Virus record (IMG/VR): IMGVR_UViG_3300042534_000747
DNA: 64,000 nucleotides
Reading direction: 5' to 3' (one strand)
Source: a virus
The notes below the pieces were generated by a model. That model saw only the letters and a list, made by a program, of their open reading frames with translations. It ran no database searches and was not told the origin of the DNA. The position numbers were made by a program, and so were the translations under genes. The stretch's first letter is position 1. Each line of letters opens with the position of its first letter. This document shows, one piece after another, positions 9,527-64,000 of the stretch.

Positions 9527-10492
9527 GTGATAAATATGAATATAATATTTGAAGGAATTCATGGTAGTAGATTATTTGAACTTAATAATGAACTTTCAGA
9601 TACAGATATAAAAGCAATCTATATACCTGAATTATTAGATGTTGTCAATGGAAAATTCAAAAAAACCATTACTTATAATGATAAAGAATTTCATAATGAA
9701 AAAAGTGATTCTAAAACAATTGATAAAGAAGTTATGTCAATTCAATTCTTTATAGAAAAGGCACTAGAAGGACTAATTATACAAGTTGATATGCTATTCA
9801 GTCCTGAAGATAAAACTATTGTTACAAGTGATTTATGGAAGTTTATAGTAGCAAATAAAAATAAGATAGTTTCTAAAACTATGATTCCTGCTTTCAGAGG
9901 TTATGTGTATCAGCAAATTGGCAAATATGCTAAAAGAGTTAAAAAAGTATCACAGGCAGAGGAAATTGTAGATATTCTCAATAAATATAATGATGATACT
10001 GTATTTGAACATATTTTTGAAGAAAATAAAGCATTCTTTGAAGATAATCCTAATATTACATTGGATGTTCATCAAAATATTAGATGCTTTAATTTCATGG
10101 GAAAGATGTATATTTTTACAACTAAAAATTATCATATACTTGATTCATTAAATAAGTATATAGGTAAATATGGTAGTAGAGTTCTTGAACTGAAAAAGAA
10201 TGAAAATGTAGATTGGAAATCAATTAGTCATGCATTCAGAGGTATTTATCAGTTGAAGCGTCTTGCTCTTTATGGAGAATATCAACATCCTATTCCTGAA
10301 AAAGATTATATCCTTCAAATAAAGAATGGTGAACTTGATTATGAGTTATTGATGGATGAGCTGTATGAAGAAATAGAAAATACTCTTATGTTAGCTGAAA
10401 ATTCTACTATGATTCCTGATGAACCAGATTATGAATTTTGGAATAATTTCATATTAGATGTATATGTTAATCAAATAAAAGAAAAATATTGA
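9527..10492 (+). CDS. DNA-pol-beta-fold nucleotidyltransferase (RlaP/Nuc-transf-like)
   Basis: GIHGSRLFELNNELSDTDIKAIYIP (GS...SDxD) and C-terminal KSISHAFR...IKNG helical region typical of the phage family. Confidence 0.8.
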   Translation: MINMNIIFEGIHGSRLFELNNELSDTDIKAIYIPELLDVVNGKFKKTITYNDKEFHNEKSDSKTIDKEVMSIQFFIEKALEGLIIQVDMLFSPEDKTIVTSDLWKFIVANKNKIVSKTMIPAFRGYVYQQIGKYAKRVKKVSQAEEIVDILNKYNDDTVFEHIFEENKAFFEDNPNITLDVHQNIRCFNFMGKMYIFTTKNYHILDSLNKYIGKYGSRVLELKKNENVDWKSISHAFRGIYQLKRLALYGEYQHPIPEKDYILQIKNGELDYELLMDELYEEIENTLMLAENSTMIPDEPDYEFWNNFILDVYVNQIKEKY

Positions 10493-22903: not shown

Positions 22904-24679
22904 TTAATTTTTCTTTTTATTGCCTTGATTTTGATTTTCATTGTAAACAATTAAAAGTAATCCGGCAATTATCATTCCATACATTGTTTGTGCTGTTGAA
23001 TTCATATTTAATATATTTTCAAACAATAAAGCTAAAAATTTATTATCATCATCTTCTTTTACATTTTCATTAGTAATTGGTGTATTTTCTTCTACATAAT
23101 CATTTAAATCATCATACACTTTAACTATTTCTGGATTTGCTTCTACAACTGCATCTACTTCTGCTTCTGCTTCTGCTTCTGCTTCTGCTTCAGGTTCAGT
23201 GGGGGTTGTTCCTGCACCAGATTTACTTGCTTCAATTGTATTACCGTATGCACCTATATTGATTCTACCACCGTTGTTGTCAGGTTCATATTCAAAATTT
23301 GAAAGAGGATTACCTGCATCAATTAATGGAGAAATTGTTTCTGAAATTACCCATGAATTTCCATTCCAACTTCCATATGTTGATTTTAAGTGGAAATCTG
23401 CTTTTGCTGAATCATAAGATGGATATACAAATTCAGGGTCTAAATTAGTATTATGTGTTCCCCATACAATATTTGAATTGCCATCAGTTGCATCCATACC
23501 ACCATACCAATTGTTGTAATCAGCATATACAATATGTTTAGGAGAATTGACAATGCTATAATATTTAATCATTTCATAATTAGTATCTGTATTTTTACAA
23601 ATATTATTGTTAAAGTAAATTTTCATATCCCAATTTGTATCATCATGGTATGGATATGGTGAATAAATACTAAGGATACCACCCTGAAATACACCAAAAA
23701 TTACATTGTTTTCAATGACAACATTTGTAAATCCTGATACTGAAATAGCACCTTGTAGGTCAGATGTTCCATCATGGTTTACATCATAGAATACATTATT
23801 TAGAACATATATATTCTTTGCAGAATTTGAAGATGTTATATGTTTACTATCATATATTGCACCACAAATATAAACTGCTGAATCACATATATTATGGAAT
23901 TCATTATCTTTTATAAGTATGTTGTATGTTGGATAATAATCTACCCATCCTTTAATGTATACTGTTCCGTATCCACTAATTGCATTACCTGCACCCCATA
24001 TTTCATTATTCAAAATGTTTACATCATGTGATAATTCAATTCTAAATGCTGTATTTACCCAATGGTCACCACGATTATTAGTAATATCCATATTATTACA
24101 TTTGTTTAACCAAACATTTTCGTGACCTGATTCAAAGAATTCACAATTATTTACAAGTCCATTACTGCAAGATTCAAAATATACAAAATCCATTGCATTT
24201 TCATGTAAATACATATCTTCTACAACTACATTATCACAATTTACGAATTGGAACATTCTGTATAAATACATACCTCTAACCAATTCATCATTGTTAGCAT
24301 AGTTTCCATCAACTTCAAAGCCATGAACATATAAATCATCATAACCATTAGCATTGAACATTGTTTTATATGCTCCCCATAATGCATTATTTTTTAATTT
24401 AACAATTGCATTTGAGTCACCTGTTAATTCAGTACCTCTCATACTAAATCTTATAGTATCGCCTATAACATATGTTCCACTTTTTAAGTATACTGTTCCA
24501 TCAACACCTGCTGCACTAATAGCTTGATTGATTTGAACTTCATCATTTGTTCCATCACAATTATACGTTCCACTGCCATCTCTTGCAACTGTAACTGTTG
24601 AAGCAGATGCCATAGACATTGAAAACAATAAAATCAATGTAACTATCAATATTTTTATATTTTTCATTTTTTTAACCAT
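22904..24679 (-). CDS. secreted right-handed parallel beta-helix protein (Methanosarcinales disaggregatase-related type)
   Basis: Signal peptide; TVTVARDGSGTYNCDGTNDEVQINQAI; DFHLKS...SPLIDAG...EP..NGGRINIGAYGNT; C-terminal TM anchor. Confidence 0.8.
   Translation of the reverse strand: MVKKMKNIKILIVTLILLFSMSMASASTVTVARDGSGTYNCDGTNDEVQINQAISAAGVDGTVYLKSGTYVIGDTIRFSMRGTELTGDSNAIVKLKNNALWGAYKTMFNANGYDDLYVHGFEVDGNYANNDELVRGMYLYRMFQFVNCDNVVVEDMYLHENAMDFVYFESCSNGLVNNCEFFESGHENVWLNKCNNMDITNNRGDHWVNTAFRIELSHDVNILNNEIWGAGNAISGYGTVYIKGWVDYYPTYNILIKDNEFHNICDSAVYICGAIYDSKHITSSNSAKNIYVLNNVFYDVNHDGTSDLQGAISVSGFTNVVIENNVIFGVFQGGILSIYSPYPYHDDTNWDMKIYFNNNICKNTDTNYEMIKYYSIVNSPKHIVYADYNNWYGGMDATDGNSNIVWGTHNTNLDPEFVYPSYDSAKADFHLKSTYGSWNGNSWVISETISPLIDAGNPLSNFEYEPDNNGGRINIGAYGNTIEASKSGAGTTPTEPEAEAEAEAEAEVDAVVEANPEIVKVYDDLNDYVEENTPITNENVKEDDDNKFLALLFENILNMNSTAQTMYGMIIAGLLLIVYNENQNQGNKKKN
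23158..23193. repeat. (CTTCTG)5+1 hexamer repeat encoding an EAEAEAEAEAE linker
   Basis: Seen directly. Confidence 0.9.
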
Positions 24680-30248: not shown

Positions 30249-31661
30249 TTAGATATGAATGATATCATATCTTTCTGAATTTAATATATCAAGCATTAAA
30301 TCAATTGCTGATAGTCCACTTGTAATCTGACTGAATAAATTAGGACTGAAACCACTTACAAGCTGAACACCTGATTTATTAACTGCAACTGTTGGTTTAG
30401 TTCCATAATTTTCAACATTCCAGAATACAATTTCTGGTAAATTATAACCTTCTTCATTAAATTCTATTGAAATATCAGTAAATGTGCTATTTCCAGTGAT
30501 ATCTTCACAATCAAATTGCATATCACTAATTATATAGAGTTTTGAAGGCATTTCTGATTGCGGAACTCTATTATTAATTGCAACTTTTAATATTTTTCGT
30601 AATGCAAGTCTTAGGTCTGTATTATAGCCTACATTAGAATGTTCAATAAAATTCATTTTTTCATAAAGAGTATTTCCTCTTATTTGTATTAATAGAGGTA
30701 TATTACTAAATGACATGTAATGATTTGCAAAAACACCTTTATTACGTTCTGCATAATAGAGTGCAAGTGATACTGAAACGCTCATAGGTCTACCTGTCAT
30801 AGAAGATGAAACATCTGCCATTACAAGAGCATTTTCATTTTGTACATAATTTGGTAGTGCATTCCATAATGCTTCAAGTGTATTATCTTCTCTTGATATT
30901 TTATCATAAATTTCATATGGATAAAGTGTAGATGAATTTATTTTCATTTCACCATTTATAGCTTTCTTTATAAAGGCAGAATAACGTTCTTCATCATGCC
31001 TTTTGAATGCATTTCTATAATTCATTGATGCTTTTGATGGAACTGTTGAATAATCAATAGAATGCCAATTATTAAATGACATTTCAGTTTCAACGATTCC
31101 TATCTGTTTACGCAAGCTACTAATTGTTTTTCTATAATGAATTTCTGACATATTTAATTCATTAGCTAGATAATGTGCAAGTTTTCTTGTATTATATGAT
31201 GATGCATTGATTGTAGGCATCCATTTTGCAAGGAGTGAAGGGTTATCAGATATTAAATCAGAGGCAAGTTGATTTTTGATAATGTTAATCATTTCATCTT
31301 CAAGTGAAGTTCCAATTAAAATGAACAAATCATCCCATCTTCCATATTCTGCAATATGTGGTATTAAATATTTAACATCTTCAGGATAATTTATAGCAAG
31401 ATGATTGAAAATTGTTCTAAATAATTCTCTTTCACCCTGTCCTTCACGAACATCTCTTGAATAAAAAAGTGCCTTTAATGCAAGATTCTTATCTTCAAAA
31501 TAAGCTTTCATGAAAGTATTTATCTGAATAGATTTAGGTGTATTTCTCATAGCACCTGATGCAGAAAAGAAATCCAATACTACATTATTTGTTGATTTAA
31601 ATGCTTTATCTCCATTGAGAGTTTCAGTTTCATTAAAATGGTTTTTTAATTCGTTTAACAT
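30249..31661 (-). CDS. DUF2828 / TROVE-like vWA-domain protein
   Basis: TLNGDKAFKST, FYSRDVREGQGER, YGRWDDL, LLAKWMP, ADVSSSM (MIDAS), ISDMQFD, IVFWNV, VSGFSP. Confidence 0.85.
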   Translation of the reverse strand: MLNELKNHFNETETLNGDKAFKSTNNVVLDFFSASGAMRNTPKSIQINTFMKAYFEDKNLALKALFYSRDVREGQGERELFRTIFNHLAINYPEDVKYLIPHIAEYGRWDDLFILIGTSLEDEMINIIKNQLASDLISDNPSLLAKWMPTINASSYNTRKLAHYLANELNMSEIHYRKTISSLRKQIGIVETEMSFNNWHSIDYSTVPSKASMNYRNAFKRHDEERYSAFIKKAINGEMKINSSTLYPYEIYDKISREDNTLEALWNALPNYVQNENALVMADVSSSMTGRPMSVSVSLALYYAERNKGVFANHYMSFSNIPLLIQIRGNTLYEKMNFIEHSNVGYNTDLRLALRKILKVAINNRVPQSEMPSKLYIISDMQFDCEDITGNSTFTDISIEFNEEGYNLPEIVFWNVENYGTKPTVAVNKSGVQLVSGFSPNLFSQITSGLSAIDLMLDILNSERYDIIHI

Positions 31662-46010: not shown

Positions 46011-46422
46011 TCAACAATTCTGGATTTGCGTGTATGTTGCCTATGATTCTGTAAAATTTAAAATCAAGGTTATGAATAGTATCTATTGAATATCCACCTA
46101 CAAATTTACCATATGGGATGAATATAGCTTTATATCTACCATGTTCAAACATAATTCTGTATCTAATATGGGTTATTGTGTATTCAATTATGAAATCATT
46201 GTAAATTTCATTGTTGTCACAATCATTACATCCAGTGTACTGCATTACTTTTGTATTTGGATTTTCTAAACCTAATTCATCCCAACCTACATAACAACCA
46301 TCTTCAAAATCAAAATCTTCTCTGTCTTGTAAATTCCCAAGAGTAAAAGGCAGTGTTAAACCGCCTGATATTTCATCAAAATTTTTAAATGTTTTATAAG
46401 CTATAAATTTCATATTATCCAT
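45991..46422 (-). CDS. YopX-family protein
   Basis: MKFIAY...VMQYTG..D....EIY...IIGNIHANPELL. Confidence 0.85.
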   Translation of the reverse strand: MDNMKFIAYKTFKNFDEISGGLTLPFTLGNLQDREDFDFEDGCYVGWDELGLENPNTKVMQYTGCNDCDNNEIYNDFIIEYTITHIRYRIMFEHGRYKAIFIPYGKFVGGYSIDTIHNLDFKFYRIIGNIHANPELLSGDTSE

Positions 46423-47744
46423 TATATCACCATATTTGCAAGTATTTTTATTCCTTCTTCTTTTGTTGTAAATATTCTTTCAAGTTGCATTTCAAATAAT
46501 TCATCTTTGATTTTGCCTATTTCTTTACCTTTGAATCCAAATACAAGTATATCATGACCATTTAGCAAAGGTTTTTCTACTTCCATAAGATTTTTGAAAT
46601 CTTGCTTTATCCATTCTATTCTATTAAGGTCAAGTTTTCTCATAGATATATCTGCTATGTGAAGTGCAAATAGACTATTCCAATGCTCATGTTCAAAAAG
46701 TTGCCTTCTTTTTCCAGTACGCATATTTTCAAAATTATGCATCTTCATGTGGTTTTTTATCACGAATTTTGCTTTATTTATTAATTCATTAGATAGTTTG
46801 AAATTTCTAAATATTTTTTCAACTTCTTCAGCACCTATATTATCATGATTGTGAAATGAAGTGCCTACTTGTGTAAATCTTTTACCATCATCATGAAATA
46901 GTGTTATTAGACATAGGTCAAAATCTATTTCTATATCTATAAAATTTTGGATTGATTCAGTTATGAATTTAAGGCAAAGCATATCATGATTAAATAAAGT
47001 TATTTCAGGGTGATGAAGTGGATTCTGTTCAATTGATTTGTGCATTTCTATTTCAGGAAATATTTTAGGAAGTAGATTGAACTCATCAAGTAATTGAACT
47101 GTCCTGAAAGCATTTATACTAAACATTATTTCTAATTCTTTCATGATTCTTTCAATGCTGACTTCAGTGAGGTCTACATGTTTTAATGCTTCTCCTAGAT
47201 TCTCTTCTATAACCATTCCATCTATAAGGGCAAATCTGATAGCTCTCAAAGCTCTCAAAGAGTCCTCTGCTAAACGTTCAACTGGATTGCCTACTGCACG
47301 TATTACACGGTTTTCTATATCTTTTACACCATCAAATAGGTCTATTATTTCACCATCTGCATTCATCAAAATTGTATTTATTGTAAAATCACGTCTACTG
47401 ACATCTTCTTTTATATCAGTTGTAAATTCAACACCTTTAAAATCTTCAATATTGGATTTTTCACCTTTTTTAAGTTTTATTGCGCCACAATGTCTACCTT
47501 TTACAATATCTTTTCTCATTGTGGTTATTTCTACAAAACCTGCATCAGAAGTCTTTATAACAAGTGTACCAAATTTTTCACCAAGATTATGATGGATAGG
47601 CACTAATTTTTTAACTTCAGTTGGTGTAAGTGGAGTTACAACATCCCAATCTTTGATAGGCAAGTTCAGCAATTTATTTCTAATTGCACCACCTACAACA
47701 AAACTATTGGTTTTTTGGAGTAATTCATTAAGAGTTATTGACAT
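46422..47744 (-). CDS. cca: class II (bacterial-type) CCA tRNA nucleotidyltransferase / poly(A) polymerase with HD domain
   Basis: VVGGAIRN, KDWDVVT, EITTMR, DVSRRDFTIN, EDSLRALRAIRF, ERIMKEL, FHDDGK; start set at ATG 47744. Confidence 0.88.
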   Translation of the reverse strand: MSITLNELLQKTNSFVVGGAIRNKLLNLPIKDWDVVTPLTPTEVKKLVPIHHNLGEKFGTLVIKTSDAGFVEITTMRKDIVKGRHCGAIKLKKGEKSNIEDFKGVEFTTDIKEDVSRRDFTINTILMNADGEIIDLFDGVKDIENRVIRAVGNPVERLAEDSLRALRAIRFALIDGMVIEENLGEALKHVDLTEVSIERIMKELEIMFSINAFRTVQLLDEFNLLPKIFPEIEMHKSIEQNPLHHPEITLFNHDMLCLKFITESIQNFIDIEIDFDLCLITLFHDDGKRFTQVGTSFHNHDNIGAEEVEKIFRNFKLSNELINKAKFVIKNHMKMHNFENMRTGKRRQLFEHEHWNSLFALHIADISMRKLDLNRIEWIKQDFKNLMEVEKPLLNGHDILVFGFKGKEIGKIKDELFEMQLERIFTTKEEGIKILANMVI

Positions 47745-47748
47745 TTTT

Positions 47749-47793
47749 AACACCTACAATGATATAATAGGTGTTAATGATATATAAATGTTT
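47749..47793 (-). promoter_or_regulatory. promoter with AACACCTA-N11-TAGGTGTT palindrome
   Basis: Near-identical ~50-bp copy at 48373-48417. Confidence 0.75.
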
Positions 47794-51371: not shown

Positions 51372-53000
51372 TTATTCCCATCTGTTATTATTTGCTCTTC
51401 CATCTTTGAATATTTCAGTTGTTTCCTTTTTTGATTTTTTGAATGTATCAGTCATTTCTTTGTAGTGTGTGGATATTACATCTTGATATGTGCCTGTCAG
51501 GTATGAATGTTGTTGGTCATGATTTGAATGGCTAATGTGAGCATATTCATGAGATAGTTTGTTAAATAGGTAATGACCTAGTTCAAATGCATTGCCTGTC
51601 TTGTTAATCATTTCAGGATTGATGAGCAGATATACTTTATTATTGATATATTCCATTTGAGCTTGTGTTTCACTCTTTACATATTTTTTTGTTTCATCAT
51701 CAATGTTTCTGGTATAAAGAAGTCCTACACCTATATCATCTGTGTATCCTCTAATTTCCATGAATTGTAAGAGAATATTTCTCCAATAATGCAGTATTGT
51801 TTGTGGTTTTTTTGCAAATACGTCTTTTGGCACTTTTTTGTAATTTTCAACCTTTACAACAAATTCAAAACCAAATGGTGAGTGCATGATGAGGTCTTTT
51901 TGAACAAATGAATCTCTAAGTTCATCAATGTTTACTTCAGGATGTGTTATAATTTCAATTTCATTATTTTCAATTGCTTCCTGTTCAATTCTCTGATTTT
52001 CTTCTCTGATTTTTGTTGCAATTGCAGATGCAATACAATAATCAAAAGTTGTACCTTCATTTGTTGAATTTTCATCAACTATTTGTTCAATTTCAGATTC
52101 AGGAATTATATCTGCAAACATGTTTTTCAATGTTTGTTTGATTGTTTCACCCTTATATGTATTTACAAATGATGAAGTTTGTTTATCAAATACTGTAACA
52201 GGATTTACAATAACTTGCCTGTAAAGTTTTTGATATTCCCTATCATAACTCCATTTCAAAGATTCCCTACTGGATGTAAGGATAGTAGTGCTGTCTTTTG
52301 TGAGGTCAAGAATTGTTGTAATGGAAGAATCATCAAGACCTTCATAAAACATGGCAACTCCATGCACTCTAATAATCATCATGCCATTATTTTGCTTTTT
52401 CTTGATTTGTACATTAGCCCAATCAAGTTCACGCTTTGCACCTCTTTTGTCCATCTGTTCAAGAATTACATCATTAAGAGTGATTGTTGCTTTTGTAGTG
52501 CAAAGTGATACAAAAAATCTAATTTCAGAAATCCATGATGGTGCAGACATTCCTTCATCATATTTTATTTCTATTTTAGTGCCTTTTGGATGATTACCAT
52601 TATCGTAACCAATTGGTTGATTACCAAGCATTTCAGATGTAAGGTAGTATTGAGTTTTTCCATCCATACAAGTTGTTATACTCCATGATTCCCATGTGAA
52701 AAAGAGTACTTCCTTTGCCTTTCCAAAACCACCAACTGCATCAGGTGAATCCTTATGTGAACCACCTAGAGTCAAAAGTTTGTTGAGAAGGATATCTTCA
52801 TTCATCCCTCTACCATCATCAATAAGGGTAATGGTGCGTGATTCAGAATTAATTTCAATGTTGATGTTTTTTGCACCTGCATCAACACTATTTTGGATTG
52901 CTTCACGAATCCAGATAAAACGAATGTCATTTGAGTATTCATTTCTGGATTTTGCAAAGTATGAGTTGTCAAATTTTATTGTTGCTATTTCGCCTGCCAT
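51372..53000 (-). CDS. GHKL (HSP90/MORC-like) ATPase with C-terminal HExxH motif
   Basis: REAIQNSVDA, DDGRGM, GGFGKAK, GTKIEI; C-terminal SHEYAH...H. Confidence 0.8.
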   Translation of the reverse strand: MAGEIATIKFDNSYFAKSRNEYSNDIRFIWIREAIQNSVDAGAKNINIEINSESRTITLIDDGRGMNEDILLNKLLTLGGSHKDSPDAVGGFGKAKEVLFFTWESWSITTCMDGKTQYYLTSEMLGNQPIGYDNGNHPKGTKIEIKYDEGMSAPSWISEIRFFVSLCTTKATITLNDVILEQMDKRGAKRELDWANVQIKKKQNNGMMIIRVHGVAMFYEGLDDSSITTILDLTKDSTTILTSSRESLKWSYDREYQKLYRQVIVNPVTVFDKQTSSFVNTYKGETIKQTLKNMFADIIPESEIEQIVDENSTNEGTTFDYCIASAIATKIREENQRIEQEAIENNEIEIITHPEVNIDELRDSFVQKDLIMHSPFGFEFVVKVENYKKVPKDVFAKKPQTILHYWRNILLQFMEIRGYTDDIGVGLLYTRNIDDETKKYVKSETQAQMEYINNKVYLLINPEMINKTGNAFELGHYLFNKLSHEYAHISHSNHDQQHSYLTGTYQDVISTHYKEMTDTFKKSKKETTEIFKDGRANNNRWE

Positions 53001-55853: not shown

Positions 55854-56099
55854 TCACAATCTCATAGTCCATCTATTTTCACAATTTATACATATTCTCA
55901 TAATATGCATTTTTGAACCAATTCCTGAAAAATATCTTCCACCATATTGAACATTTTTAAAATTTGAACTGTTTCCACATTTCAAACATTTTCTCGGACT
56001 TTGATTTTGAAGTTCTATTGAATTTGTAATTTCTTCTATAATTTTATTACGTTCTTCAAGTAATGCTTTTTTTTCTTCATTTGTTAAATTATTATTCAT
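55854..56099 (-). CDS. Zn-ribbon protein, paralog of 54968..55210
   Basis: Same shared motif as 54968..55210. Confidence 0.7.
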   Translation of the reverse strand: MNNNLTNEEKKALLEERNKIIEEITNSIELQNQSPRKCLKCGNSSNFKNVQYGGRYFSGIGSKMHIMRICINCENRWTMRL

Positions 56100-56206
56100 A
56101 ATTTATATTATGATATAGTTTTAGATTAATTATAGTATATAAATATTTTTACAATTAAATTAAAAAAATTATAAATACTTATTTATTGTAAGTTTATTGG
56201 TGATTT

Positions 56207-56483
56207 TTGATTAATTATAAAATTTTTGGTTTCAATTTAAGTAGAGATTATGAAGGAAATTTTTATGGTGATGGAACATATGAAACAAAATATTTAGTGA
56301 TTCTTAGACATGATTCTTCAGATAAAAATATAGTTAAAGCATTAAGGGATATTGGATTTTTTTAGAAAAGGAATACATTCTACTAATTATAAAATAAGCG
56401 GTGATACTGAAAAATCGTTGATAATTAAATCTGCTAAGAGTGGAATGTTTATATGTGAATTAAGAAAAATAAATGATTATTAG
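56207..56483 (+). pseudogene. small gene with a 1-bp insertion in a T7 run (about 91 aa if repaired)
   Basis: ggtga SD plus TTG at 56207. Span is 277 nt (3n+1); removing one T at 56357-56363 restores the frame. Confidence 0.45.
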
Positions 56484-58717
56484 TCATTTATTTCTATACC
56501 TTTTTCTTCAAAGTACATATTTCTTGCATCAATGATGCTTGTTTTTGAAGGCAACTCATTATTTAGCATTTTTTGTCTACACCATCCATAAAAATAATTA
56601 TCGAATGCAGTATATAATTTGCTTTCATGTGGCTTGCCATTCTTCAGTACTATATCGAATGCACCACGAAGGTTTTTCCATGTATTATAGAAATGTCCTT
56701 TTGTTTTGGTCATGAAGCCTGTTGCATCTTCAATCACAAAACCTTCAACATATTCATTATTGTATTTGTAATTTTCAGAATTGACTTCATTATATAGTTC
56801 AAGGAAATCTTCTATATTGTCTACTGTATAGCAAAGTTCCTTTACTTCAATACCTAATTCATTGCCTAATTTTTGAACTTCATCATATGGAAGTTTTTCA
56901 TATTCAAATGTCCTTCTAACTAGGTCAAGTAAGATGATTTTTGGTTTTGAGTATTCAATTATATGAGGGTCTTTTTCAGGATGAATAACTTCAAAAATTG
57001 CACTAGTATTATTTATTTTATTATAATTTTTGAGAAATTCACGCTTTTCTTCTGTAACGGAATCATTGAATATTTCTTCAAATGTAAGTGCATAATTACC
57101 TGCATTATTTGAATATTCTTTTGCATCATATGATTTTGATGAAATGAATAGTTTGTCAAATTCACTGTTGTAACCTATAATTCCTAAAAATCCATTATAT
57201 TTTAGGTAGAATTTTACAGGGAACTGTAGATTCTTAATTAATTGTGAAAGTTGCACTTCAGGTATATTTCTCTGGTCTACATTGAAGAATTTTTCATATG
57301 AACGTGATACTATTTCAAGTGTACTAAGATTTATGAAAAGTCCTCTTGCTTTGATTGTCTGACTATTCCATTTATTGTTTCTAAATACTGAACTGGTAAA
57401 ATTATATGATATAACATTATCAGATAGAGCACGTTTATTAATATTGTTATTTGAATTTAACAAATTAATTATTTCATTATAAGATTTATTTAATGGTAAT
57501 TCAGTTCTTTTTTCATAAACCTTAAATACTGTATTTTTGATTTCAATAGGTGTGAAACCTGTGGAATCTAGTGTAAGGCATCTGAGATTACCACCTGATT
57601 CAATTTCATGGTTCAGATTGAAACATCTGTCATTGATTTGAATAGGGTCAAGTAATTTGTTTCTATGTCCGTGTACCTGATATGTATCATTAGGAGAATG
57701 CTTCATGAAGGCATTATTTACAATATTCATATCATCATACATACCAACTCCACGAATCATCTCATGGCAAGCTATGAAAGCTATGTTTTCAGGCATCTTA
57801 GAGATTCCTGCATGGGTTACAATTACATTTTTGTCATGGAATTTGTAATATAGGCATGGATAGAGCTTGCGATAGAACATTCTTGCATCTTTCTTTGTGA
57901 ATCCTGCATTAACAAGTTGATGAACTGTTTTATGCATAAATTCTTTAGATGCATATCTTGTTTCTGTTTCATTTGAATATCCCCAATTTTTCAAATGAAT
58001 TTCATGATTACCTTCAAGCATAACTACATTAGGCATGTTGATAATGCTTTTTAGGAAATTCATTACTTCACCATTTTCAATACCTCTATCAATATAGTCA
58101 CCTACAAAAATATAAAATTCATTAGGGTCAATTCCATTTTTGAGGTATTCCTGAAGAACTGTATTGCATCCATGAATATCTCCAATGTGATGAATTTTTT
58201 TGTAATTTGAAAGGTCTGTGATTTTGGTTTTAAATGTTTCATTAAAATCTTCAGGTTTAATTACAGTTACAAATGATTGTGGTTCAAGAACTTCAAACCT
58301 TGCATTCATCTTTTCAAGTACATCTTCAGGTACAAATTTATATTCTTCTCTATTTTTGTTTCTACGCTTTACTTCTTCAAGAGGTATGTCTGTAAAATCA
58401 AGTGCATAAACTCTATATTTGTATTTATCAGTGAGATTTTTGTATTTTTTGTAATCTTGGGTTCTGGAATGTGTAGCATCAATAATAATGAATTCTCCAC
58501 GTTCCATACGCTTTTCTACAAGCTCCATTATGAGTTTCCATACATAATTATCATTAAATTGAGAAATTCCATCTGTGCCATCAGGCATCTGTATAGGTGA
58601 CTGAACTAAAAGTCTAATAGAGTCTGCACTAATGGTATATTTTTCAAGATTATTATTTTTTAGGAAAGTGGATTTTCCACATCCTGCTATTCCTCTCATG
58701 AGTACTAAATTTTTCAT
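56480..58717 (-). CDS. RNA-repair fusion: polynucleotide kinase + calcineurin-like phosphoesterase + T4 Rnl1-like RNA ligase
   Basis: GIAGCGKST and DATH; GDIHG, GDYIDRG, GNHE, HAG, HGH; ARGLF, RSYEKFFN, KYNG, EGFV, KTK; start set at ATG 58717 after ggtga. Confidence 0.9.
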   Translation of the reverse strand: MKNLVLMRGIAGCGKSTFLKNNNLEKYTISADSIRLLVQSPIQMPDGTDGISQFNDNYVWKLIMELVEKRMERGEFIIIDATHSRTQDYKKYKNLTDKYKYRVYALDFTDIPLEEVKRRNKNREEYKFVPEDVLEKMNARFEVLEPQSFVTVIKPEDFNETFKTKITDLSNYKKIHHIGDIHGCNTVLQEYLKNGIDPNEFYIFVGDYIDRGIENGEVMNFLKSIINMPNVVMLEGNHEIHLKNWGYSNETETRYASKEFMHKTVHQLVNAGFTKKDARMFYRKLYPCLYYKFHDKNVIVTHAGISKMPENIAFIACHEMIRGVGMYDDMNIVNNAFMKHSPNDTYQVHGHRNKLLDPIQINDRCFNLNHEIESGGNLRCLTLDSTGFTPIEIKNTVFKVYEKRTELPLNKSYNEIINLLNSNNNINKRALSDNVISYNFTSSVFRNNKWNSQTIKARGLFINLSTLEIVSRSYEKFFNVDQRNIPEVQLSQLIKNLQFPVKFYLKYNGFLGIIGYNSEFDKLFISSKSYDAKEYSNNAGNYALTFEEIFNDSVTEEKREFLKNYNKINNTSAIFEVIHPEKDPHIIEYSKPKIILLDLVRRTFEYEKLPYDEVQKLGNELGIEVKELCYTVDNIEDFLELYNEVNSENYKYNNEYVEGFVIEDATGFMTKTKGHFYNTWKNLRGAFDIVLKNGKPHESKLYTAFDNYFYGWCRQKMLNNELPSKTSIIDARNMYFEEKGIEIND

Positions 58718-58767
58718 TTTTTCACCATTGATTAAACAATGGTTGTAATGATATTTAAAAGTATGCA

Positions 58768-58779
58768 AAAAAAAGAAAT
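58768..58779 (-). terminator. oligo-T terminator downstream of the CRISPR array
   Basis: A-run on the + strand (T-run on minus) about 30 bp past the last repeat. Confidence 0.45.
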
Positions 58780-58809
58780 TAATGAAGCCATTTTGCTTCA
58801 ATGTAGCCA

Positions 58810-59126
58810 GTCACAATTCAACATTGTTGGAATAATGTATTGTAACACCAGACAACAAAATAAGAAATATCAAAAGAAGCATAAGTCACAATTCAACATA
58901 TTTGAAATGTTGTATGACAACTAATCCATTCAAAAGAAGAAGAAGTTATATGTTAACATCACAATTCAACATTGTTGGAATGTTGTATTGTAACATTTAG
59001 TATGAGTCCTGATTGTCACAATTCAACATTGTTGGAGTGTTGTATGACAACTCTATTCTTGGTAATGTTGCATGAGCAGTATTATGTGTGTCACAATTCA
59101 ACATTGTTGGAGTGTTGTATGGCAAC
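58810..59126 (-). CRISPR. CRISPR mini-array: 5 x 37-bp repeats, 4 spacers
   Basis: Repeats at 58810-58846, 58885-58921, 58958-58994, 59015-59051 and 59090-59126. Minus-strand consensus GTTGTCATACAACACTCCAACAATGTTGAATTGTGAC. Unique spacers of 38, 36, 20 and 38 bp. Degeneracy is greater toward low coordinates. Confidence 0.88.
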
Positions 59127-59285
59127 ACTGTAATGTATATTGTTTTTATTTATACAACATTTAGTTGATGTTGATTCTTGAATCATTGATTTCCTAATGG
59201 AACATCTCAAACAAGCTCACCCCATATGTGCTACGGTGTATATGATTATTAATTATTTGAATTGTACTTGGTTATCGTACAAGTC
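59127..59285 (-). ncRNA. putative tracrRNA / omegaRNA-like leader RNA
   Basis: Own TATA at about 59304-59315. Hairpins TTGTAC/GTACAA and CCGTA-gcaca-TATGG; nested CTTG..TTGA..TTCC-atta-GGAA..TCAA..CAAG; repeat-complementary segment at 59152-59174. Confidence 0.6.
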
Positions 59286-59302
59286 ATATAATGTACGTTA
59301 TC

Positions 59303-59316
59303 ATATATAAATGTTC
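59303..59316 (-). promoter_or_regulatory. archaeal BRE/TATA driving the leader-array transcript
   Basis: Minus-strand AGAACATTTATATATG, matching the box found upstream of many minus-strand genes. Confidence 0.65.
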
Positions 59317-59360
59317 TGTAAGAAAAGAAATCTTGTATTTATAAAGAAAAAAATAAAAAT

Positions 59361-60566
59361 TCAACAAGAAATAGGTGCTGAATTTTTGATATTGATTGCT
59401 GCATTAATATCTCTATCATGAGTTGTATTACATGATGTGCATGTCCATTCTCTGATATTTAATCCCATTTTAGCAGTTTTTGTCCCACATACATTACAGA
59501 TGTGAGATGTTGCTTTCCATTGGTCTACTTCAATGACTGTTTTGCCTTCATATTCTGCTTTATATCGGAGTTGTCTGAAAAATTCACTCCATGATACATC
59601 TGCAATTGCTTTTGAAAGTTTTGGATTTTGCATCATTCCTTTTATGTTGAGGGTTTCAATTGCAATACAGTCATAGTTAGTTACTAATTCTTTTGAAATG
59701 TTGTGTTGGAAATCAGAACGTTGATTTGCAATTTTCTCATGGCAAGATGCAATAATTTTATTTTGTTTATGCCAATTATTTGAAAATTTTTGTTTTCTTG
59801 ATGCTCTACGTTGTAGTTTTGCAAGTTTCTTTTGTGAGGAAACAAAATATCTATTATTATCTATTTTTTTGCCATCTGAAAGAATTGCAAAATGAGTTAA
59901 TCCCATATCAATACCTATTGTGGTAGAATCGTTGTAGGGTATTTTTGGCATTTCAGGTAATCCATCTTCTACAAGAATTGAAATATAATATTTTCCTGAA
60001 GATGTTTTTGAAATTGTAGATGTTTTAATTAAATATTGGTCTGAAATTTTGAAGGTTTCACCATTATCATATGAAATCCAACATTTATTTTTAGATTGTT
60101 TAATTACATCAAAATTAGAATTTTCAAATTTTCTATGTAATCTACATTCAATTAGAGTTTTTAATTTTGGAATATTTATATATCCAGTTTTGAAGTTAAT
60201 TGAATAATTTTGATAAAATTGAAATGAATTACCTGATTTTTTATTTTTAAATTGAGGATATCCTACATCTATACCCTTTTTTTGCCCTCTAAAGAAATTT
60301 TTATATGCTGTATCAAGGTTACGCAATGTATATATTAAGCTTCCTGAACTAGCTTCTGAAATAAAAGGGTATTGTTCTTTCCATACACTGCTAATTAAAT
60401 CTTGACAATCTGATGGAAACATTGATTGATGTGCATTTTGATACATGAATGAACATGTATGCAATGATTTATTCCAAATGAATCTACAACAATCAAAATT
60501 TATTTTGAAAAATTCCTTCTGTTCTTCAGTTGGATAAATTCTATATTTATATGCTTTTAGTACCAT
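59361..60566 (-). CDS. tnpB: TnpB-family RNA-guided endonuclease, CRISPR-associated (Cas12f/V-U-like candidate)
   Basis: KAYKYRIYPTEEQ N-terminus; RuvC-I IGIDMG; RuvC-II IAIETL; CNVC...CTSC Zn finger; RuvC-III DRDINAAINI; no tnpA nearby. Confidence 0.9.
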   Translation of the reverse strand: MVLKAYKYRIYPTEEQKEFFKINFDCCRFIWNKSLHTCSFMYQNAHQSMFPSDCQDLISSVWKEQYPFISEASSGSLIYTLRNLDTAYKNFFRGQKKGIDVGYPQFKNKKSGNSFQFYQNYSINFKTGYINIPKLKTLIECRLHRKFENSNFDVIKQSKNKCWISYDNGETFKISDQYLIKTSTISKTSSGKYYISILVEDGLPEMPKIPYNDSTTIGIDMGLTHFAILSDGKKIDNNRYFVSSQKKLAKLQRRASRKQKFSNNWHKQNKIIASCHEKIANQRSDFQHNISKELVTNYDCIAIETLNIKGMMQNPKLSKAIADVSWSEFFRQLRYKAEYEGKTVIEVDQWKATSHICNVCGTKTAKMGLNIREWTCTSCNTTHDRDINAAINIKNSAPISC

Positions 60567-60596
60567 ATTTTAACCTGTGAATGTTATAGGTCAATT

Positions 60597-60623
60597 AATG
60601 GTTGTTCTAATATTTAAATGTTT
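60597..60623 (-). promoter_or_regulatory. element-type promoter of tnpB
   Basis: aatggttgttct-aa-tatttaaatgtttg; the aatggttgttct motif also precedes TATA boxes at 6514 and 34228. Confidence 0.6.
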
Positions 60624-60686
60624 GTTAAAAAAGAAAAAAAGAAAATTGAGTAACAAATGGATTATTATGGTATTGCAACCAATAAC

Positions 60687-60965
60687 TTACTGTAAATTTT
60701 CCCAATTATTTAATAATTCCTTTGCTTTTTTATCATTTGTAGTTCTTACAAAATCTAAAACTTCACTTAAATAAGGTTGTGTTCCATTATATATAATGAA
60801 ATAATGTACTCTTCTATCAATACGATTTATTTTTTCCATTTTGGTATAATATCTCAAAACATGAATTTTTCCTTTAAATGTTTTAAAATATTCTTTCATC
60901 ATAGAACCATTTGACATTACAGCACTTAATTGAGTTTGTTTTGATTTAACCATATTTTCATACAT
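60687..60965 (-). CDS. hypothetical protein
   Basis: 92-aa ORF. Confidence 0.5.
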   Translation of the reverse strand: MYENMVKSKQTQLSAVMSNGSMMKEYFKTFKGKIHVLRYYTKMEKINRIDRRVHYFIIYNGTQPYLSEVLDFVRTTNDKKAKELLNNWENLQ

Positions 60966-61012
60966 GTATATATAAATAATATTACTATATATAAAGATTT
61001 TTAGAATCTGTA

Positions 61013-61267
61013 TTAATTAATTTTTTCTACGGATTCAGGTTCGTAATCAATGTTTGTGAGTTTGGCAAAATTATTGGATAAATTGGCAAAACCATCTAAA
61101 TTTGATAGATTGCAACCTCTGAGCATATTGTAAGAGATATGTTCAGCTATTTCTTCAGGTGTTTCTAAATTGTAGAAGGTATTTTTCCAATCTTCATCTA
61201 TTTGTTCAAATACTTCAGGGGAAATTTCAAGGTCTGCTGTTATCATAAATTCAATTTTAAATTTCAT
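61013..61267 (-). CDS. hypothetical acidic protein
   Basis: 84-aa ORF. Confidence 0.6.
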   Translation of the reverse strand: MKFKIEFMITADLEISPEVFEQIDEDWKNTFYNLETPEEIAEHISYNMLRGCNLSNLDGFANLSNNFAKLTNIDYEPESVEKIN

Positions 61268-61480
61268 TTAATATTCTACTCCTTTTAGTAAAAATGTTTT
61301 TTTGCAATTAGGGCATTCAATTTCAGAATTTTCTATTTCGTTCCATTTGTTGTTAAAAATGCAATATGAAAAGAATCCTTCAGTATCAAAATCTTCATCT
61401 TTTGCTAAATCAATATCATGTTTACAATTTGGACATTCTACATCTAATGACCAATATAAAGTTGCAGTTGCTTTTTTCAT
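61268..61480 (-). CDS. Zn-ribbon protein
   Basis: CPNC twice. Confidence 0.65.
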   Translation of the reverse strand: MKKATATLYWSLDVECPNCKHDIDLAKDEDFDTEGFFSYCIFNNKWNEIENSEIECPNCKKTFLLKGVEY

Positions 61481-61482
61481 AA

Positions 61483-61668
61483 TTATCTGTAATTCAAATT
61501 ATGGATTTCTTTTAGAAGTTTGTCATTTATGGCAGTTGTAATGTCAAAAATATTAAATATTTCTTTTCCATCTACCATTACTACGCCATCATAGCATACT
61601 ACTACATCAATATCGCCTGATACAGTAGTTGAATAAAAAGAAGTTTCACCATCTATCATATTAATCAC
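61483..61668 (-). CDS. hypothetical protein
   Basis: 61-aa ORF. Confidence 0.5.
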   Translation of the reverse strand: MINMIDGETSFYSTTVSGDIDVVVCYDGVVMVDGKEIFNIFDITTAINDKLLKEIHNLNYR

Positions 61669-61957
61669 ATTTTTTCATTTTTTCAAATTCTGCCATTTTT
61701 TCAATATTTTTACAAAGATAATGATTGCAATTAAAGCATTCTGGTAATGAATCTATTGGTTGTGAGCAATGTCCACAAATAGGAATATTCCATTTATCTG
61801 AACATGCCATTTTTGACATTAGATTATAATCTATTGTTTGTACGTCTGATAACATTGTGGTTACAGCAGGGCATTTTTCATATCCTAAATCAAGTTTCTT
61901 TTTTGAGCATTGACCATTTTTTTTGAGGTTAGAGCATATTTTCAACATAATAATCAT
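61661..61957 (-). CDS. Cys-rich Zn-binding protein
   Basis: CGHC...CFNC...C. Confidence 0.6.
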   Translation of the reverse strand: MIIMLKICSNLKKNGQCSKKKLDLGYEKCPAVTTMLSDVQTIDYNLMSKMACSDKWNIPICGHCSQPIDSLPECFNCNHYLCKNIEKMAEFEKMKKCD

Positions 61958-62059
61958 TCAATGAATGGTTATTATTATATTTAAATGTAATTGATAATAT
62001 AGGCAATTAGTAATTAAAAAAGCAAATGTTTTTATAATATCAATACATTATTATGAATA

Positions 62060-62560
62060 ATGGATAATGAATTATTAATGTTTGATGAAATTTTAACAGA
62101 AAAAATAAAGGAATATCATGTTTCTGTTGTATGGAATGAAGTAGAAATAACATTAGATGATGTTAGAAAAGCTATTGAAAATAATATTTCAGTAATAGAT
62201 AATGAATCTTATAGTAATTGTGGATATATTTTTAAACCTGATGAATGGCATATTGGGAGAATTATTTATTTTGTGAATAATCCAAATGAAATTGACCCAA
62301 TTTGTTTAGATAATAAGTGTGCTAATAACGATATATTACCAATTCCAATTATAACAGATGGAAATCATAGATATATGGCATCTTTATATTTAAATAAAAA
62401 ATATATAGAATGTTTTTATGCCGGAAGATTAGATGTTTTAAATTATTTAAAAGGGAATATAGAAAATCCACCAATGAATGGAAAAAAAGAAAAAGAAGGG
62501 ATTATTCAGTTAATTTTTTTGCATTTTTTGTCTTTGCTAAACTTTTTTCATTCTAAATAA
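62060..62560 (+). CDS. ParB/Srx-like N-terminal domain protein
   Basis: DPICL...IITDGNHRYMA. Confidence 0.65.
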   Translation: MDNELLMFDEILTEKIKEYHVSVVWNEVEITLDDVRKAIENNISVIDNESYSNCGYIFKPDEWHIGRIIYFVNNPNEIDPICLDNKCANNDILPIPIITDGNHRYMASLYLNKKYIECFYAGRLDVLNYLKGNIENPPMNGKKEKEGIIQLIFLHFLSLLNFFHSK

Positions 62561-62929
62561 TAAGGAGAAGATTTTCCAGTCAAATTATTTAAATCATTAA
62601 TTTTTATAAATTTAATTGCATCATCCCATTTATTAAATGTAACTGGTTGTGCTTCTTTATAAATTTTATATGTTCCTATACATGCAACTATATTACCTCG
62701 AACATCTCTTTTTAACCATACATTTTTATTTGCAAATCCTAGATATTTTGATACTTTCCAAATTGTATCAAGTCTAATACCTTCTCCACCAACTATTCTT
62801 GCAACTTCTTGTTCATTTGTTTTTTTATTTATAATTGCACCATTATAATATCCATCTTTAAGATGTATATATTTATCATTTTCAGAATATACATATATAC
62901 CTTTATAATAGCCATTTGTATCTTGCCAT
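62548..62929 (-). pseudogene. 127-codon open frame whose SD-linked ATG is 1 nt out of frame
   Basis: GAGGA SD plus ATG at 62929. Span is 382 nt (3n+1); removing one A gives MADTNGYYKG...SPYYLE. Confidence 0.55.
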
Positions 62930-62931
62930 AA

Positions 62932-63144
62932 TTATTTCCTCAATATTTTATATGTATGTATCATTGAAAATTTAGATTTTTGTTTATTTGGATATTTCCA
63001 TGAATCTGCTTGTTTTTCTGTAATAAGTCCTTTTTCTTCTAATTCATAAACGAATGTTAACCATCGTGTTTGATTAACTTCAATGTAAAGACTTGTTTTT
63101 GGATTTAATTTAAAAAATTGTTCTTCAGCATCTTTTTTATTCAT
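62932..63144 (-). CDS. small protein, paralog of 53337..53531
   Basis: Same shared motif as 53337..53531. Confidence 0.7.
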   Translation of the reverse strand: MNKKDAEEQFFKLNPKTSLYIEVNQTRWLTFVYELEEKGLITEKQADSWKYPNKQKSKFSMIHTYKILRK

Positions 63145-63148
63145 AATA

Positions 63149-63565
63149 TCACATTTTATTATTCTTTAAGAATTTTACTCTTGCTTTTGCTTTGCCTAAT
63201 TTTTCATAATCTGTAATAGAAATTGATTTATAATAATCTTTATGTGTTCTATTTATTAGTGTCCACATACTAAGAACTTTACCTGATGATTGTTTTCTTT
63301 CACCATATTTCCATCGTTCATTAAAATTGTTTTCAAGTGGTATATCAATTGTTTCAAATGGATGAAACTCATAATCACCACGTTCTAATTTACGATAAAA
63401 TTCTTCTCTACGTGATAATTCATATACTTTATCATTTCTTATTTTAAATATGAATTCTTTTGCATCTTTTAATTTATCAAAGCTTGCACCATCAAATCTA
63501 TGACTATAATTTACACCATAACTAACAAAATATGTTATTACTTTTTTATCTGTCATTATTTTCAA
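63149..63565 (-). CDS. hypothetical basic protein
   Basis: 138-aa ORF. Confidence 0.6.
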   Translation of the reverse strand: MKIMTDKKVITYFVSYGVNYSHRFDGASFDKLKDAKEFIFKIRNDKVYELSRREEFYRKLERGDYEFHPFETIDIPLENNFNERWKYGERKQSSGKVLSMWTLINRTHKDYYKSISITDYEKLGKAKARVKFLKNNKM

Positions 63566-63568
63566 CTT

Positions 63569-63748
63569 CTATAAAACCCATAAATCAACTGTTGTTTCAG
63601 ATAAAGAACCATCATTTCTAACTGAAGGAAACGTTCTAACTGAATAATATTTATTTTTTAGTTCATCTTTCAATTCTTTAGCTAGTTTTCCTCTTTTAGC
63701 TGTACCCATTAATGTATAATTATTTCCATTTATTTTCTTATATACCAT
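63569..63748 (-). CDS. 59-aa member of the small basic KK..G..Y.L family (not in the ORF track)
   Basis: MVYKKINGNNYTLMGTAKRGKLAKELKDELKNKYYSVRTF...; sits below the shared junction repeat. Confidence 0.55.
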   Translation of the reverse strand: MVYKKINGNNYTLMGTAKRGKLAKELKDELKNKYYSVRTFPSVRNDGSLSETTVDLWVL

Positions 63749-63791
63749 TATTTTTATCCTATATTTTAAGATAAAAATAAATTGTTTTAAG

Positions 63792-63833
63792 AGTATATAA
63801 AGTTTTTTAGAATTAGTGGGAGTTAAAAAAGAA
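63792..63833. repeat. conserved terminator/promoter junction, copy 3
   Basis: agtatataaagttttttagaattagtgggagttaaaaaagaa. Confidence 0.85.
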
Positions 63834-63834
63834 T

Positions 63835-63999
63835 TTATTTTCTAATGATTATTTCAATTATGGTGTTTTTATCAATTTTTGAAAGAATTTCTTTGCCTAC
63901 TTGCAAACGCCCATATTTACGCTGATTGTCTGTTATATCATTTGGATAAATTGTTTTTCTGATTATTATTTCAGATTCATCAAAAACTAATTGTGGCAT
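63835..63999 (-). CDS. 54-aa protein, possibly DUF2080/AbrB-like (may extend beyond the window)
   Basis: MPQLVFDESEIIIRKTIYP...GRLQVGKE...IEIIIRK. Confidence 0.4.
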   Translation of the reverse strand: MPQLVFDESEIIIRKTIYPNDITDNQRKYGRLQVGKEILSKIDKNTIIEIIIRK

Positions 64000-64000
64000 G

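Follow-up and report, generated by a model that had tools for sequence, protein, structure and literature searches.

A candidate TnpB-derived, CRISPR-like RNA-guided nuclease module with a degenerate repeat array in a ~200-kb mobile element

Do the five 37-nucleotide (nt) repeats that follow a tnpB gene in IMG/VR virus record IMGVR_UViG_3300042534_000747 belong with that gene as parts of one RNA-guided nuclease, or do a transposon-type protein and an array resembling clustered regularly interspaced short palindromic repeats (CRISPR) lie next to one another by coincidence? The stretch analysed, hereafter the window, comprises 64,000 nt of an element of ~202 kb with a GC content of 22-30% (about 25%), and a first-pass annotation, made from the letters alone, had described a compact TnpB, a leader RNA and a mini-array as a candidate new type V, Cas12f-like system. 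The locus occupies positions 58767-60621 (~1.9 kb), with tnpB followed by a co-oriented RNA unit, and the features described at first pass are confirmed at their positions, all on the minus strand. We consider it probable, at roughly 0.6, that the locus is a CRISPR-like module of the TranC or type V-U kind, with an RNA-guided nuclease derived from TnpB, that has become fixed in the element. That protein, leader RNA and array form one unit, as originally proposed, is supported by the homology of the leader to an omegaRNA scaffold and by the recurrence of the same layout in the closest TnpB lineages.

By covariance-model homology, the leader is a homolog of the omegaRNA scaffold, the RNA that partners canonical TnpB. 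The model, designated R1, was built from the scaffolds of 7 relatives, with the window excluded, and was run over both strands of the 64 kb. It returned a single, full-length match at 59239-59173 (35.9 bits, E 6.7e-8). This segment contains stems A, B and C, ends in the conserved ...AAGAAUC, and is the candidate counterpart of a tracrRNA, the trans-activating RNA of CRISPR systems (hence tracr-like). The scaffolds of the relatives share a hairpin (e.g., CCGUAG...CUACGG), the motif GAGCYUGUGGA, and an inner hairpin within a long-range stem, ending ...AUGAAGCAGGAAGC. The inner hairpin is kept in the window (UUCC-AUUA-GGAA), and in long-range stem B the CCUG...CAGG of most relatives is replaced by CUUG...CAAG, a compensatory change. 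The leader lies between the second of two promoters described below and repeat 1, is ~155 nt long and is non-coding. It had been picked out at first pass as a ~150-nt structured RNA; the scaffold is real, but in folding energy neither the leader (z -1.6) nor the whole transcript (z -2.6) is informative, the value for the leader being unremarkable, and the significance of the leader thus derives from homology rather than from thermodynamic stability. A search of 58000-61500 against Rfam at E values up to 1 found no family.

The sequence immediately 3′ of the scaffold can be set beside that of canonical omegaRNAs. In the canonical omegaRNAs of this group, ...GAAGC is followed by the last hairpin, a tail of ~10 nt ending ...GTTCAC, and then the guide. 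The window has ...GAAUC, after which come a small but complete hairpin (AACAU-N7-AUGUU) and its degenerate tail, a further ~25 nt, and the repeats. A pseudoknot between a GUGGAC-like scaffold segment and the repeat 3′ end, which is convincing by eye in the Methanococcoides omegaRNA, has no clear equivalent in the window and was dropped. Upstream of the conserved scaffold, a 5′ hairpin (UUGUAC-N9-GUACAA, 59262-59282) appears in both the minimum-free-energy and the centroid folds and is not conserved in relatives.

The protein encoded by tnpB (59361-60566, 401 residues) matches the Pfam families HTH_OrfB_IS605 (3.9e-17), OrfB_IS605 (2.4e-27) and Cas12f1-like_TNB (1.5e-23). PF12323, PF01385 and PF07282 each score above the gathering cut-off, delineating an N-terminal helix-turn-helix and wedge (HTH/WED) region, a split RuvC and a zinc-ribbon TNB domain. 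Alignment to the ISDra2 TnpB structures 8bf8 and 8exa shows that the D-E-D residues of RuvC (GIDMG, AIETL and HDRD) and a zinc finger of the form CxxC...CxxC (CNVCG...CTSCN) are both retained, in agreement with the three acidic motifs and zinc finger read at first pass. Relative to the homolog P0004, BLASTP places a 29-residue insert in the window protein at approximately residues 149-178. In a search of the PDB by sequence, no natural protein of solved structure came closer than ISDra2 TnpB (E 2.6e-61); LaTranC (9jfo; E 5e-30, C-terminal RuvC region only) and 9j09 (E 3e-27), a 540-residue chain that is deposited as 'Transposase' and cited as Cas12n in 10.64898/2026.03.27.714800, are far weaker matches. 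The best chain labelled Cas12f, 9nzq, matches at E 2e-5 and over the RuvC/TNB part only. As judged from sequence, then, the tnpB product is an ISDra2-type RNA-guided nuclease with its catalytic residues intact; it does not belong to the Cas12f family, the likeness to which is architectural only, and the description 'Cas12f-like' has accordingly been given up.

Downstream of the scaffold and co-oriented with this RuvC effector lie five 37-nt repeats with four or five distinct intervening segments. A 46-nt linker (59127-59172), containing a candidate anti-repeat, leads to repeat 1 (59090-59126), delimited by direct-repeat analysis, and repeat alignment places repeat 2 at 59015-59051, repeat 3 at 58958-58994, repeat 4, the most divergent of the five, at 58885-58921, and repeat 5 at 58810-58846. 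The GTT at the start and the 14 nt that precede the final base (ATGTTGAATTGTGA) are the same in every copy. Each repeat holds a hairpin, CAACA-N9-UGUUG, with the same stem as the last hairpin of the leader, together with the tail AAUUGUGAC. Among the arrays compared, repeat 3′ ends (..TTGTGAC, ..TTGCGAC, ..TTGCCAC) resemble the canonical omegaRNA 3′ ends ..GTTCAC and ..GTCAC. Between the repeats lie spacer 1 (59052-59089, 38 nt), spacer 2 (58995-59014, 20 nt), spacer 3 (58922-58957, 36 nt) and spacer 4 (58847-58884, 38 nt), and the sequence after repeat 5 (58767-58809) possibly begins with a fifth guide.

The transcriptional signals around tnpB and the RNA unit are those of the element itself. 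The motif ACATTTAWATA occurs at 16 sites in the window where 1.5 are expected, a ten-fold enrichment, and 15 of the 16 sites are on the gene (minus) strand; it is the common TATA-type promoter of the gene cassettes of this element (other examples are at 15166, 26830, 30087, 47781, 53038 and 61978). Because the motif is enriched and biased toward the gene strand, tnpB and the RNA unit each appear to stand behind an element-class promoter, as the first reading had it for tnpB: ACATTTAAATA at 60611-60621, 45 nt 5′ of the tnpB ATG, and ACATTTATATA at 59304-59314, the predicted driver of the transcript that carries scaffold and array. The tnpB promoter lies in a direct-repeat family, D2, common to the promoters of pnkp and of the leader. 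Oligo-T tracts act as terminators in archaea, and we infer that the T-rich tract immediately 3′ of the tnpB stop codon (59340-59360) is likely a terminator dividing the gene from the RNA unit. The scaffold of relatives overlaps or abuts the tnpB stop codon, whereas that of the window begins 122 nt past it, after this tract and its own promoter. At the far end of the array, where an oligo-T end had already been noticed, a terminator scan identified a hairpin (58800-58783) followed by a T-run (58782-58767) as the terminator of the RNA unit, beyond which lies the promoter of the next gene. The non-coding stretch of ~510 nt that follows the second promoter is taken as one transcript, in which a different segment, 14-38 nt in length, comes after each of the five 37-nt copies.

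Whether the nearest homologs also carry arrays had been set beforehand as a test of the proposal, and the closest lineages do carry a scaffold followed by 37-nt repeats. The best homologs in a collection of 5.8 billion proteins are at most 46% identical to the window TnpB; those bearing names are annotated as IS200/IS605 TnpB or transposase, and many derive from Methanosarcinales. The array-bearing lineages nearest to the window protein share 43-46% identity with it. The top match, P0002, and P0004 are 44-46% identical to it, and the contig of P0002 breaks off inside the first repeat. At the P0004 loci (L138 and L139, 44% identity), two 37-nt repeats come after the scaffold, their spacers being 15 and 17 nt long. 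These repeats match those of the window at 24 of 37 positions without gaps, a value that none of 20000 shuffles equalled, and they begin with GTTG and end in TTG.ATTG.GAC, as do those of the window. At L138, the sequence after repeat 2 recurs upstream of tnpB (2830-2870 and 4250-4290; TTGTTCTGTT..GCATGCAA and TTGTTCTGTT..GTTGCATGCAA, with a palindrome), which could reflect the ends of an insertion sequence (IS) or duplication of an integration site flanking the entire unit.

A second array-bearing lineage is a clade of 23 proteins (including P0007, P0009, P0012 and P0059) in which, at every fetched locus with enough downstream sequence, a scaffold, a 45-nt linker and 37-nt repeats ending GTTGCCAC follow in order. 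Measured from the start of the scaffold, repeat 1 ends after 158-159 nt in this clade and after 159 nt in the window. Repeat length, ends and sequence are shared, and this speaks against the wholly independent origin of the window array that the first-pass annotation had entertained. Contigs with proteins identical to P0009 (L142-L149) or to P0012 (L150-L155) carry 1-8 perfect repeats, together with 7 and 8 different spacers that are 35-39 nt long. At L146, a spacer common to other P0009 contigs is found among the last two positions, and the novel spacers are those nearest the scaffold. Since identical proteins are accompanied by changing spacers, with the new ones nearest the scaffold, the P0009 and P0012 arrays are live CRISPR arrays; no cas1 or cas2 is present in the fetched flanks of these loci (L142-L155). 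The elements that bear them also encode a D5/Pox_D5 primase-helicase, a T5orf172 protein and a second TnpB. Two array variants of the P0012 lineage (L151:3015-3400, with the identical protein, and L162:2706-3000, with a P0012-lineage TnpB) hold one 36-nt spacer core in opposite orientations, which suggests either integration without orientation control or targeting of both strands.

Evidence that such an array works with a TnpB scaffold comes from the linker of this clade. In the P0007 clade, the linker and the repeat form a duplex of two helices that covaries among four lineage variants, with 6 of 15 pairs changing on both sides and 88% of cells paired. None of 500 shuffles reached the observed values, and sliding the alignment by 1-3 columns left at most one such pair. 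This covariation is the signature of a tracr-like anti-repeat, and shows that the partner of the array in that clade is the TnpB scaffold and not some unrelated Cas system.

Arrays are, by the sequences compared, a lineage-specific trait. Relatives from Methanococcoides, Staphylococcus and several viral contigs are array-free, with plain omegaRNAs ending ...GTTCAC or ...GTCAC, and among 78 further viral-contig relatives (36-44% identity) the single one with an array belongs to the P0012 lineage. In phage records, tblastn retrieved only ordinary 'transposase' TnpBs of at most 42% identity, and megablast with 56000-64000 retrieved no match; the array of locus L140 had no match in plasmids. A careful maximum-likelihood tree places the window protein and both array-bearing lineages on one side of a branch with support of 98/96 and the array-free P0003 and P0010 on the other; the tree neighbor of the window protein is P0043 (Spirulina). 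The array side of this branch also holds array-free Firmicutes TnpBs, so that arrays must have arisen or been lost more than once nearby.

By analogy with the P0007 clade, the linker of the window is a candidate anti-repeat. Its position and topology are those seen in that clade, and RNAduplex predicts a linker:repeat duplex of 16 bp (-10.8 kcal/mol), in which linker positions 14-21 (59159-59152, UGUUGUAU) pair with repeat positions 7-14 and linker positions 2-9 (59171-59164) with repeat positions 25-34. The linker can pair in this manner, over 16 bp, with each of the five repeats.

RNA assemblies contain sequence of this region. Run X3, a mine-drainage metatranscriptome from a different study, contains a 156-nt contig of depth 11.4 that corresponds to 59230-59076 with no differences, and spans the scaffold, the linker, repeat 1 and 14 nt of spacer 1. 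No contig of run X3 lies on tnpB; parts left uncovered by the RNA contigs of runs X2 and X3 are not evidence of silence. In a sediment metatranscriptome, contig pieces of low depth fall on tnpB, on the gene downstream of the array and on 58739-58889, which takes in repeat 5, spacer 4 and part of repeat 4. These data hint that RNA of the scaffold-repeat 1 region is abundant and are no proof of processing. A further low-depth contig of run X3, 230 nt in length, contains part of spacer 4 exactly and a rearranged repeat 5-spacer 4 junction with 4 differences (window 58831-58882), its remaining sequence being unlike the window; it may derive from a different array allele or a related element, and is too thin to call an array variant.

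Several observations weigh against a multi-guide module in the window. The first-pass annotation had described five regularly spaced repeats with unique spacers, and although their number and their length of 37 nt stand, no two are identical: pairs match at 29-36 of 37 positions, 10 columns vary, and start-to-start distances are 75, 57, 73 and 75 nt. The spacers are not all unique either. The first 14 nt of spacer 1 are, and the remainder is like the 5′ part of the repeat, its 3′ portion resembling a decayed partial repeat (17 of 21 matches; p 0.008, uncorrected for the six tests made). CTTCTTTTGA (direct-repeat family D7) is present in spacers 3 and 4 alike and, in spacer 3, is preceded by sequence like a repeat 3′ end. 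With spacer lengths ranging irregularly from 20 to 38 nt and such repeat-like remnants within them, units 2-5 could be decaying duplicates. The source DNA run, at ~200-fold depth, contains no array variants in its contigs, which drop rare variants, and spacer turnover or acquisition is accordingly not in evidence for this array. No target of any spacer was found in the 64-kb window, where the best matches (14-17 of 20) are at chance level, and no exact 20-mer of spacers 1-4 was found in IMG/VR. The predicted duplex exceeds its shuffled controls by a modest margin only, with 12 of 500 performing equally well; the paired segments can also form hairpins, and from a single sequence an anti-repeat is indistinguishable from a degenerate repeat copy. 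Repeat variation avoids the predicted paired columns as a trend only (2 of 16 versus 8 of 21, p 0.14). Assembled RNA contigs show neither ends nor strand nor level, and could stem from DNA carry-over. Finally, the window TnpB is a lone long branch, whose exact sister group is not fixed by the tree.

Several of these features fit a particular route of array formation. The window array looks duplication-derived, partly decayed and apparently static. Remnants in spacers, irregular spacing and the absence of alleles, together with the lack of any Cas1, Cas2 or Cas4 domain in the scanned open reading frames (ORFs), are better accommodated by serial duplication of omegaRNA segments than by Cas1-Cas2 insertion. 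The domain scan covered 56 ORFs of the window, all but one of at least 140 residues and including every ORF of at least 280 residues; smaller ORFs, of the size of Cas2, were mostly unscanned, and within that scope the reported absence of cas1, cas2 and cas4 holds.

We propose that the 37-nt repeat would represent the duplicated 3′ module of an ancestral omegaRNA, consisting of the 3′ strand of the last stem and the guide-adjacent tail ending ...UUGUGAC. TnpB would bind the scaffold, and the final stem of the omegaRNA would be restored by pairing between the linker anti-repeat and a repeat, with repeat 1 pairing in cis and repeats 2-5 alternatively or in trans. The guide for DNA cleavage dependent on a target-adjacent motif (TAM) would then be the sequence that follows each repeat on its 3′ side. 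The array would grow by segmental duplication and divergence, with no Cas1-Cas2 insertion, and for that reason its guides would constitute a small fixed set, most likely directed against competing elements or host loci.

The main rival to this proposal is an ordinary, immobilized TnpB-omegaRNA pair in which the scaffold, repeat 1 and the next 14-20 nt constitute a single fixed guide RNA and repeats 2-5 are decaying duplicates. We regard this as unlikely on balance, and yet as a serious candidate. In its favor, the only well-covered RNA contig ends 14 nt into spacer 1, and the divergence of all repeats, the irregular spacer lengths and the repeat-like remnants in spacers 1 and 3 point the same way; the two repeats of the P0004 relative, with 15-17-nt spacers directly 3′ of the scaffold, would represent a minimal duplication state. 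On the other hand, the 14 nt at the 3′ end stayed invariant in 5 of 5 repeats while 10 other columns drifted, a pattern suggesting that the part next to the guide is under selection in each unit. The entire array is enclosed between promoter and terminator, the second metatranscriptome contains a contig covering repeat 5 and spacer 4, and the sister lineages demonstrate that the architecture can support multi-spacer arrays.

A second alternative, which we judge improbable, is that the repeats are a virus-borne mini-array that uses host class 1 machinery (Cas6 with a type I or III system) and that the adjacent TnpB is coincidental. Sulfolobus viruses provide an example of mini-arrays that borrow host machinery in this way. 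In length (37 nt) and in their 8-nt 3′ end, ATTGTGAC, the repeats are loosely reminiscent of those archaeal class 1 repeats that end in ATTGAAAC/G; the small hairpin CAACA-N9-UGUUG lies just 5′ of ATTGTGAC; and no adaptation genes were seen in the window. On the other side, tandem searches with the repeat 3′ core detected no related array in 185,579 GTDB species genomes, JGI metagenomes or IMG/VR. The tandem 11-nt core gave 112 stretches in GTDB and 9 in IMG/VR, and the tandem 14-nt core 6 in JGI, all of them unrelated tandem or coding repeats; the sensitivity of these searches is that of exact 11-14-nt cores, and the best identity, 24 of 37, includes the forced core. An exact 20-mer of the repeat had 0 matches in IMG/VR. 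Also against class 1 dependence, an omegaRNA scaffold stands between tnpB and the array, and the linkage of scaffold and array in three diverged TnpB lineages, with a covarying linker:repeat duplex, is unexpected for a host-type array.

Least probable of all is a still-mobile IS200/IS605 or IS1341-type element with a long, internally duplicated right end, in which the 'spacers' would be IS sequence and only the outer flank a guide: the canonical TnpB, the ordinary multi-copy IS TnpBs of Methanosarcinales among its nearest relatives and the recurrence of TTGTTCTGTT..GCATGCAA upstream of tnpB at L138, which could mark IS ends, speak for it, but the 64 kb hold no second scaffold, the scanned ORFs include neither a tnpA (as first reported) nor a second tnpB, both flanks are element-class promoters and terminators rather than IS ends, and a terminator-like tract and a promoter motif separate the scaffold from tnpB, whereas in IS copies the scaffold overlaps or abuts the stop codon.

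The window also carries a set of genes for RNA repair. Directly downstream of the array, at 56480-58717 (-), lies a gene for a single-chain RNA repair enzyme, a Pnk-phosphatase-Rnl1 fusion of an AAA_33 kinase, a metallophosphoesterase and a T4 Rnl1-type ligase, which probably starts at the ATG at 58717 and not at the listed TTG at 58801. The RNA-repair set further comprises, scattered over the window, an RlaP-like nucleotidyltransferase (9527-10492), a DUF2828/DUF7788 protein (30249-31661; PHROG 'RNA-binding'), a class II (PolyA_pol-type) CCA-adding enzyme (46422-47753) and a tRNA-Gln(UUG) (7256-7328). Class II CCA-adding enzymes are of the bacterial and eukaryotic type and thus odd for an archaeal element. 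Also encoded are a HerA-like ATPase, a UvrD helicase and, at 51372-53000 (-), a protein of 542 residues with an N-terminal HATPase_c_3 domain (GHKL/MORC-like) and no other recognized domain, possibly a defence or DNA-manipulating ATPase. A beta-helix and disaggregatase-related protein (22904-24679, -) has named relatives mostly in Methanolobus, Methanococcoides and Methanomethylovorans, at 33-41% identity, and so hints at a Methanosarcinales-like host in spite of the low GC content (25%). Given the TATA-type promoters, the Methanosarcinales affinity of the TnpB and the relatives of the disaggregatase-related protein, the element is likely an archaeal one associated with Methanosarcinales-like methanogens.

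How does the locus compare with systems already described? TnpB-sized effectors with arrays and no adaptation genes have been catalogued as V-U6-45, as TranC and in Methanoperedens elements, so that the module is a further case of the known TnpB-derived arrays without cas1/cas2, standing between the nuclease of a selfish transposon and CRISPR, and defines no new class, and the original designation as a candidate new type V system falls away. Among its closest counterparts is TranC, whose arrays reportedly number 3-20 repeats, each 32-38 bp long (Jin et al., Cell 2025; cited in PMC13565253 and 10.64898/2026.03.27.714800), and whose omegaRNA is reported to be divided into tracrRNA and CRISPR RNA (crRNA), the 'RNA splitting' model of how type V arrays arose (Jin et al. 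2025, as cited in PMC13565253). One such effector, CauTranC9, is TnpB-sized and phage-borne, with 38-bp repeats (10.64898/2026.03.27.714800). TranC systems share with the window an effector derived from IS605-lineage TnpB, a short downstream array, no adaptation genes nearby, and a tracr-like scaffold with repeat-guide units, and some of their effectors lack an expanded recognition (REC) or WED domain and reside on viruses. The window differs in that its repeats all diverge and have a duplication-derived look, and in that its scaffold keeps a complete relic of the last hairpin and has its own promoter. The sequence comparison with published TranC and V-U lineages covered LaTranC (9jfo) and 9j09, both far weaker matches than ISDra2 TnpB.

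The type V-U6 to V-U45 systems comprise 40 TnpB branches with downstream arrays and no cas1/2/4, some of them archaeal and on plasmids, and for these the birth of arrays by serial duplication of omegaRNA segments has been proposed (Altae-Tran et al. 2023, PMC10691335). The window agrees with them in having a TnpB with an array 3′ of the gene and no cas1/2/4 seen, and may add sequence-level support for the duplication route, in that the repeat corresponds to the omegaRNA 3′ module and partial repeat remnants are present in the spacers. In unclassified extrachromosomal elements of Methanoperedens, TnpBs have been found 'within two genes' of arrays that are perfect and highly diversified (Shi et al. 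2023, 10.1101/2023.08.02.551345). These are, like the element considered here, archaeal, Methanosarcinales-related mobile elements with a TnpB beside an array, and their spacer content varies within populations, as in the P0007 clade; the window array, by contrast, is degenerate and apparently static. A scaffold or anti-repeat analysis was not met with in the excerpts consulted (10.1101/2023.08.02.551345).

The remaining comparisons are with single-guide TnpB and with Cas12f. ISDra2 TnpB-omegaRNA (8exa, 8bf8, 8h1j) has in common with the window the domain order, the RuvC triad, the zinc finger and a downstream scaffold on the same strand; the window differs in having no tnpA, IS ends or extra copies seen in the 64 kb, a detached scaffold with its own promoter, and five guide-bearing modules rather than one. 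Cas12f (V-F) offers a similar arrangement of gene, tracr-like RNA and short array, ~37-nt repeats and a miniature effector, but sequence similarity is marginal (9nzq, above) and the window protein has no sign of Cas12f-specific REC or WED expansions. Measured against these partly excerpted accounts, what may be new is the lineage itself, the detached scaffold with its own promoter, the visible duplication remnants, and the graded series formed with the two sister lineages.

A more ambitious interpretation, which we offer tentatively as one possibility, is that the window captures a CRISPR-like array being born without adaptation machinery, with one scaffold serving five cis repeat-guide modules produced by duplication of the omegaRNA 3′ end, and hence a naturally multiplexed TnpB. 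The graded series would then run from the two-repeat proto-array of P0004 through the window to the adaptive arrays of the P0007 clade with their polarized spacer gain. The window and its two sister lineages would provide sequence-level snapshots of the path from omegaRNA to type V array in archaeal mobile elements, in which the repeat can still be recognized as an omegaRNA 3′ module, the scaffold keeps a relic of the last hairpin, and the arrays run from 2 degenerate units to ones still actively growing. At 371-426 residues the effectors are TnpB-sized, and their scaffolds are short; if active, these effectors would be of interest for genome editing as compact multi-guide nucleases.

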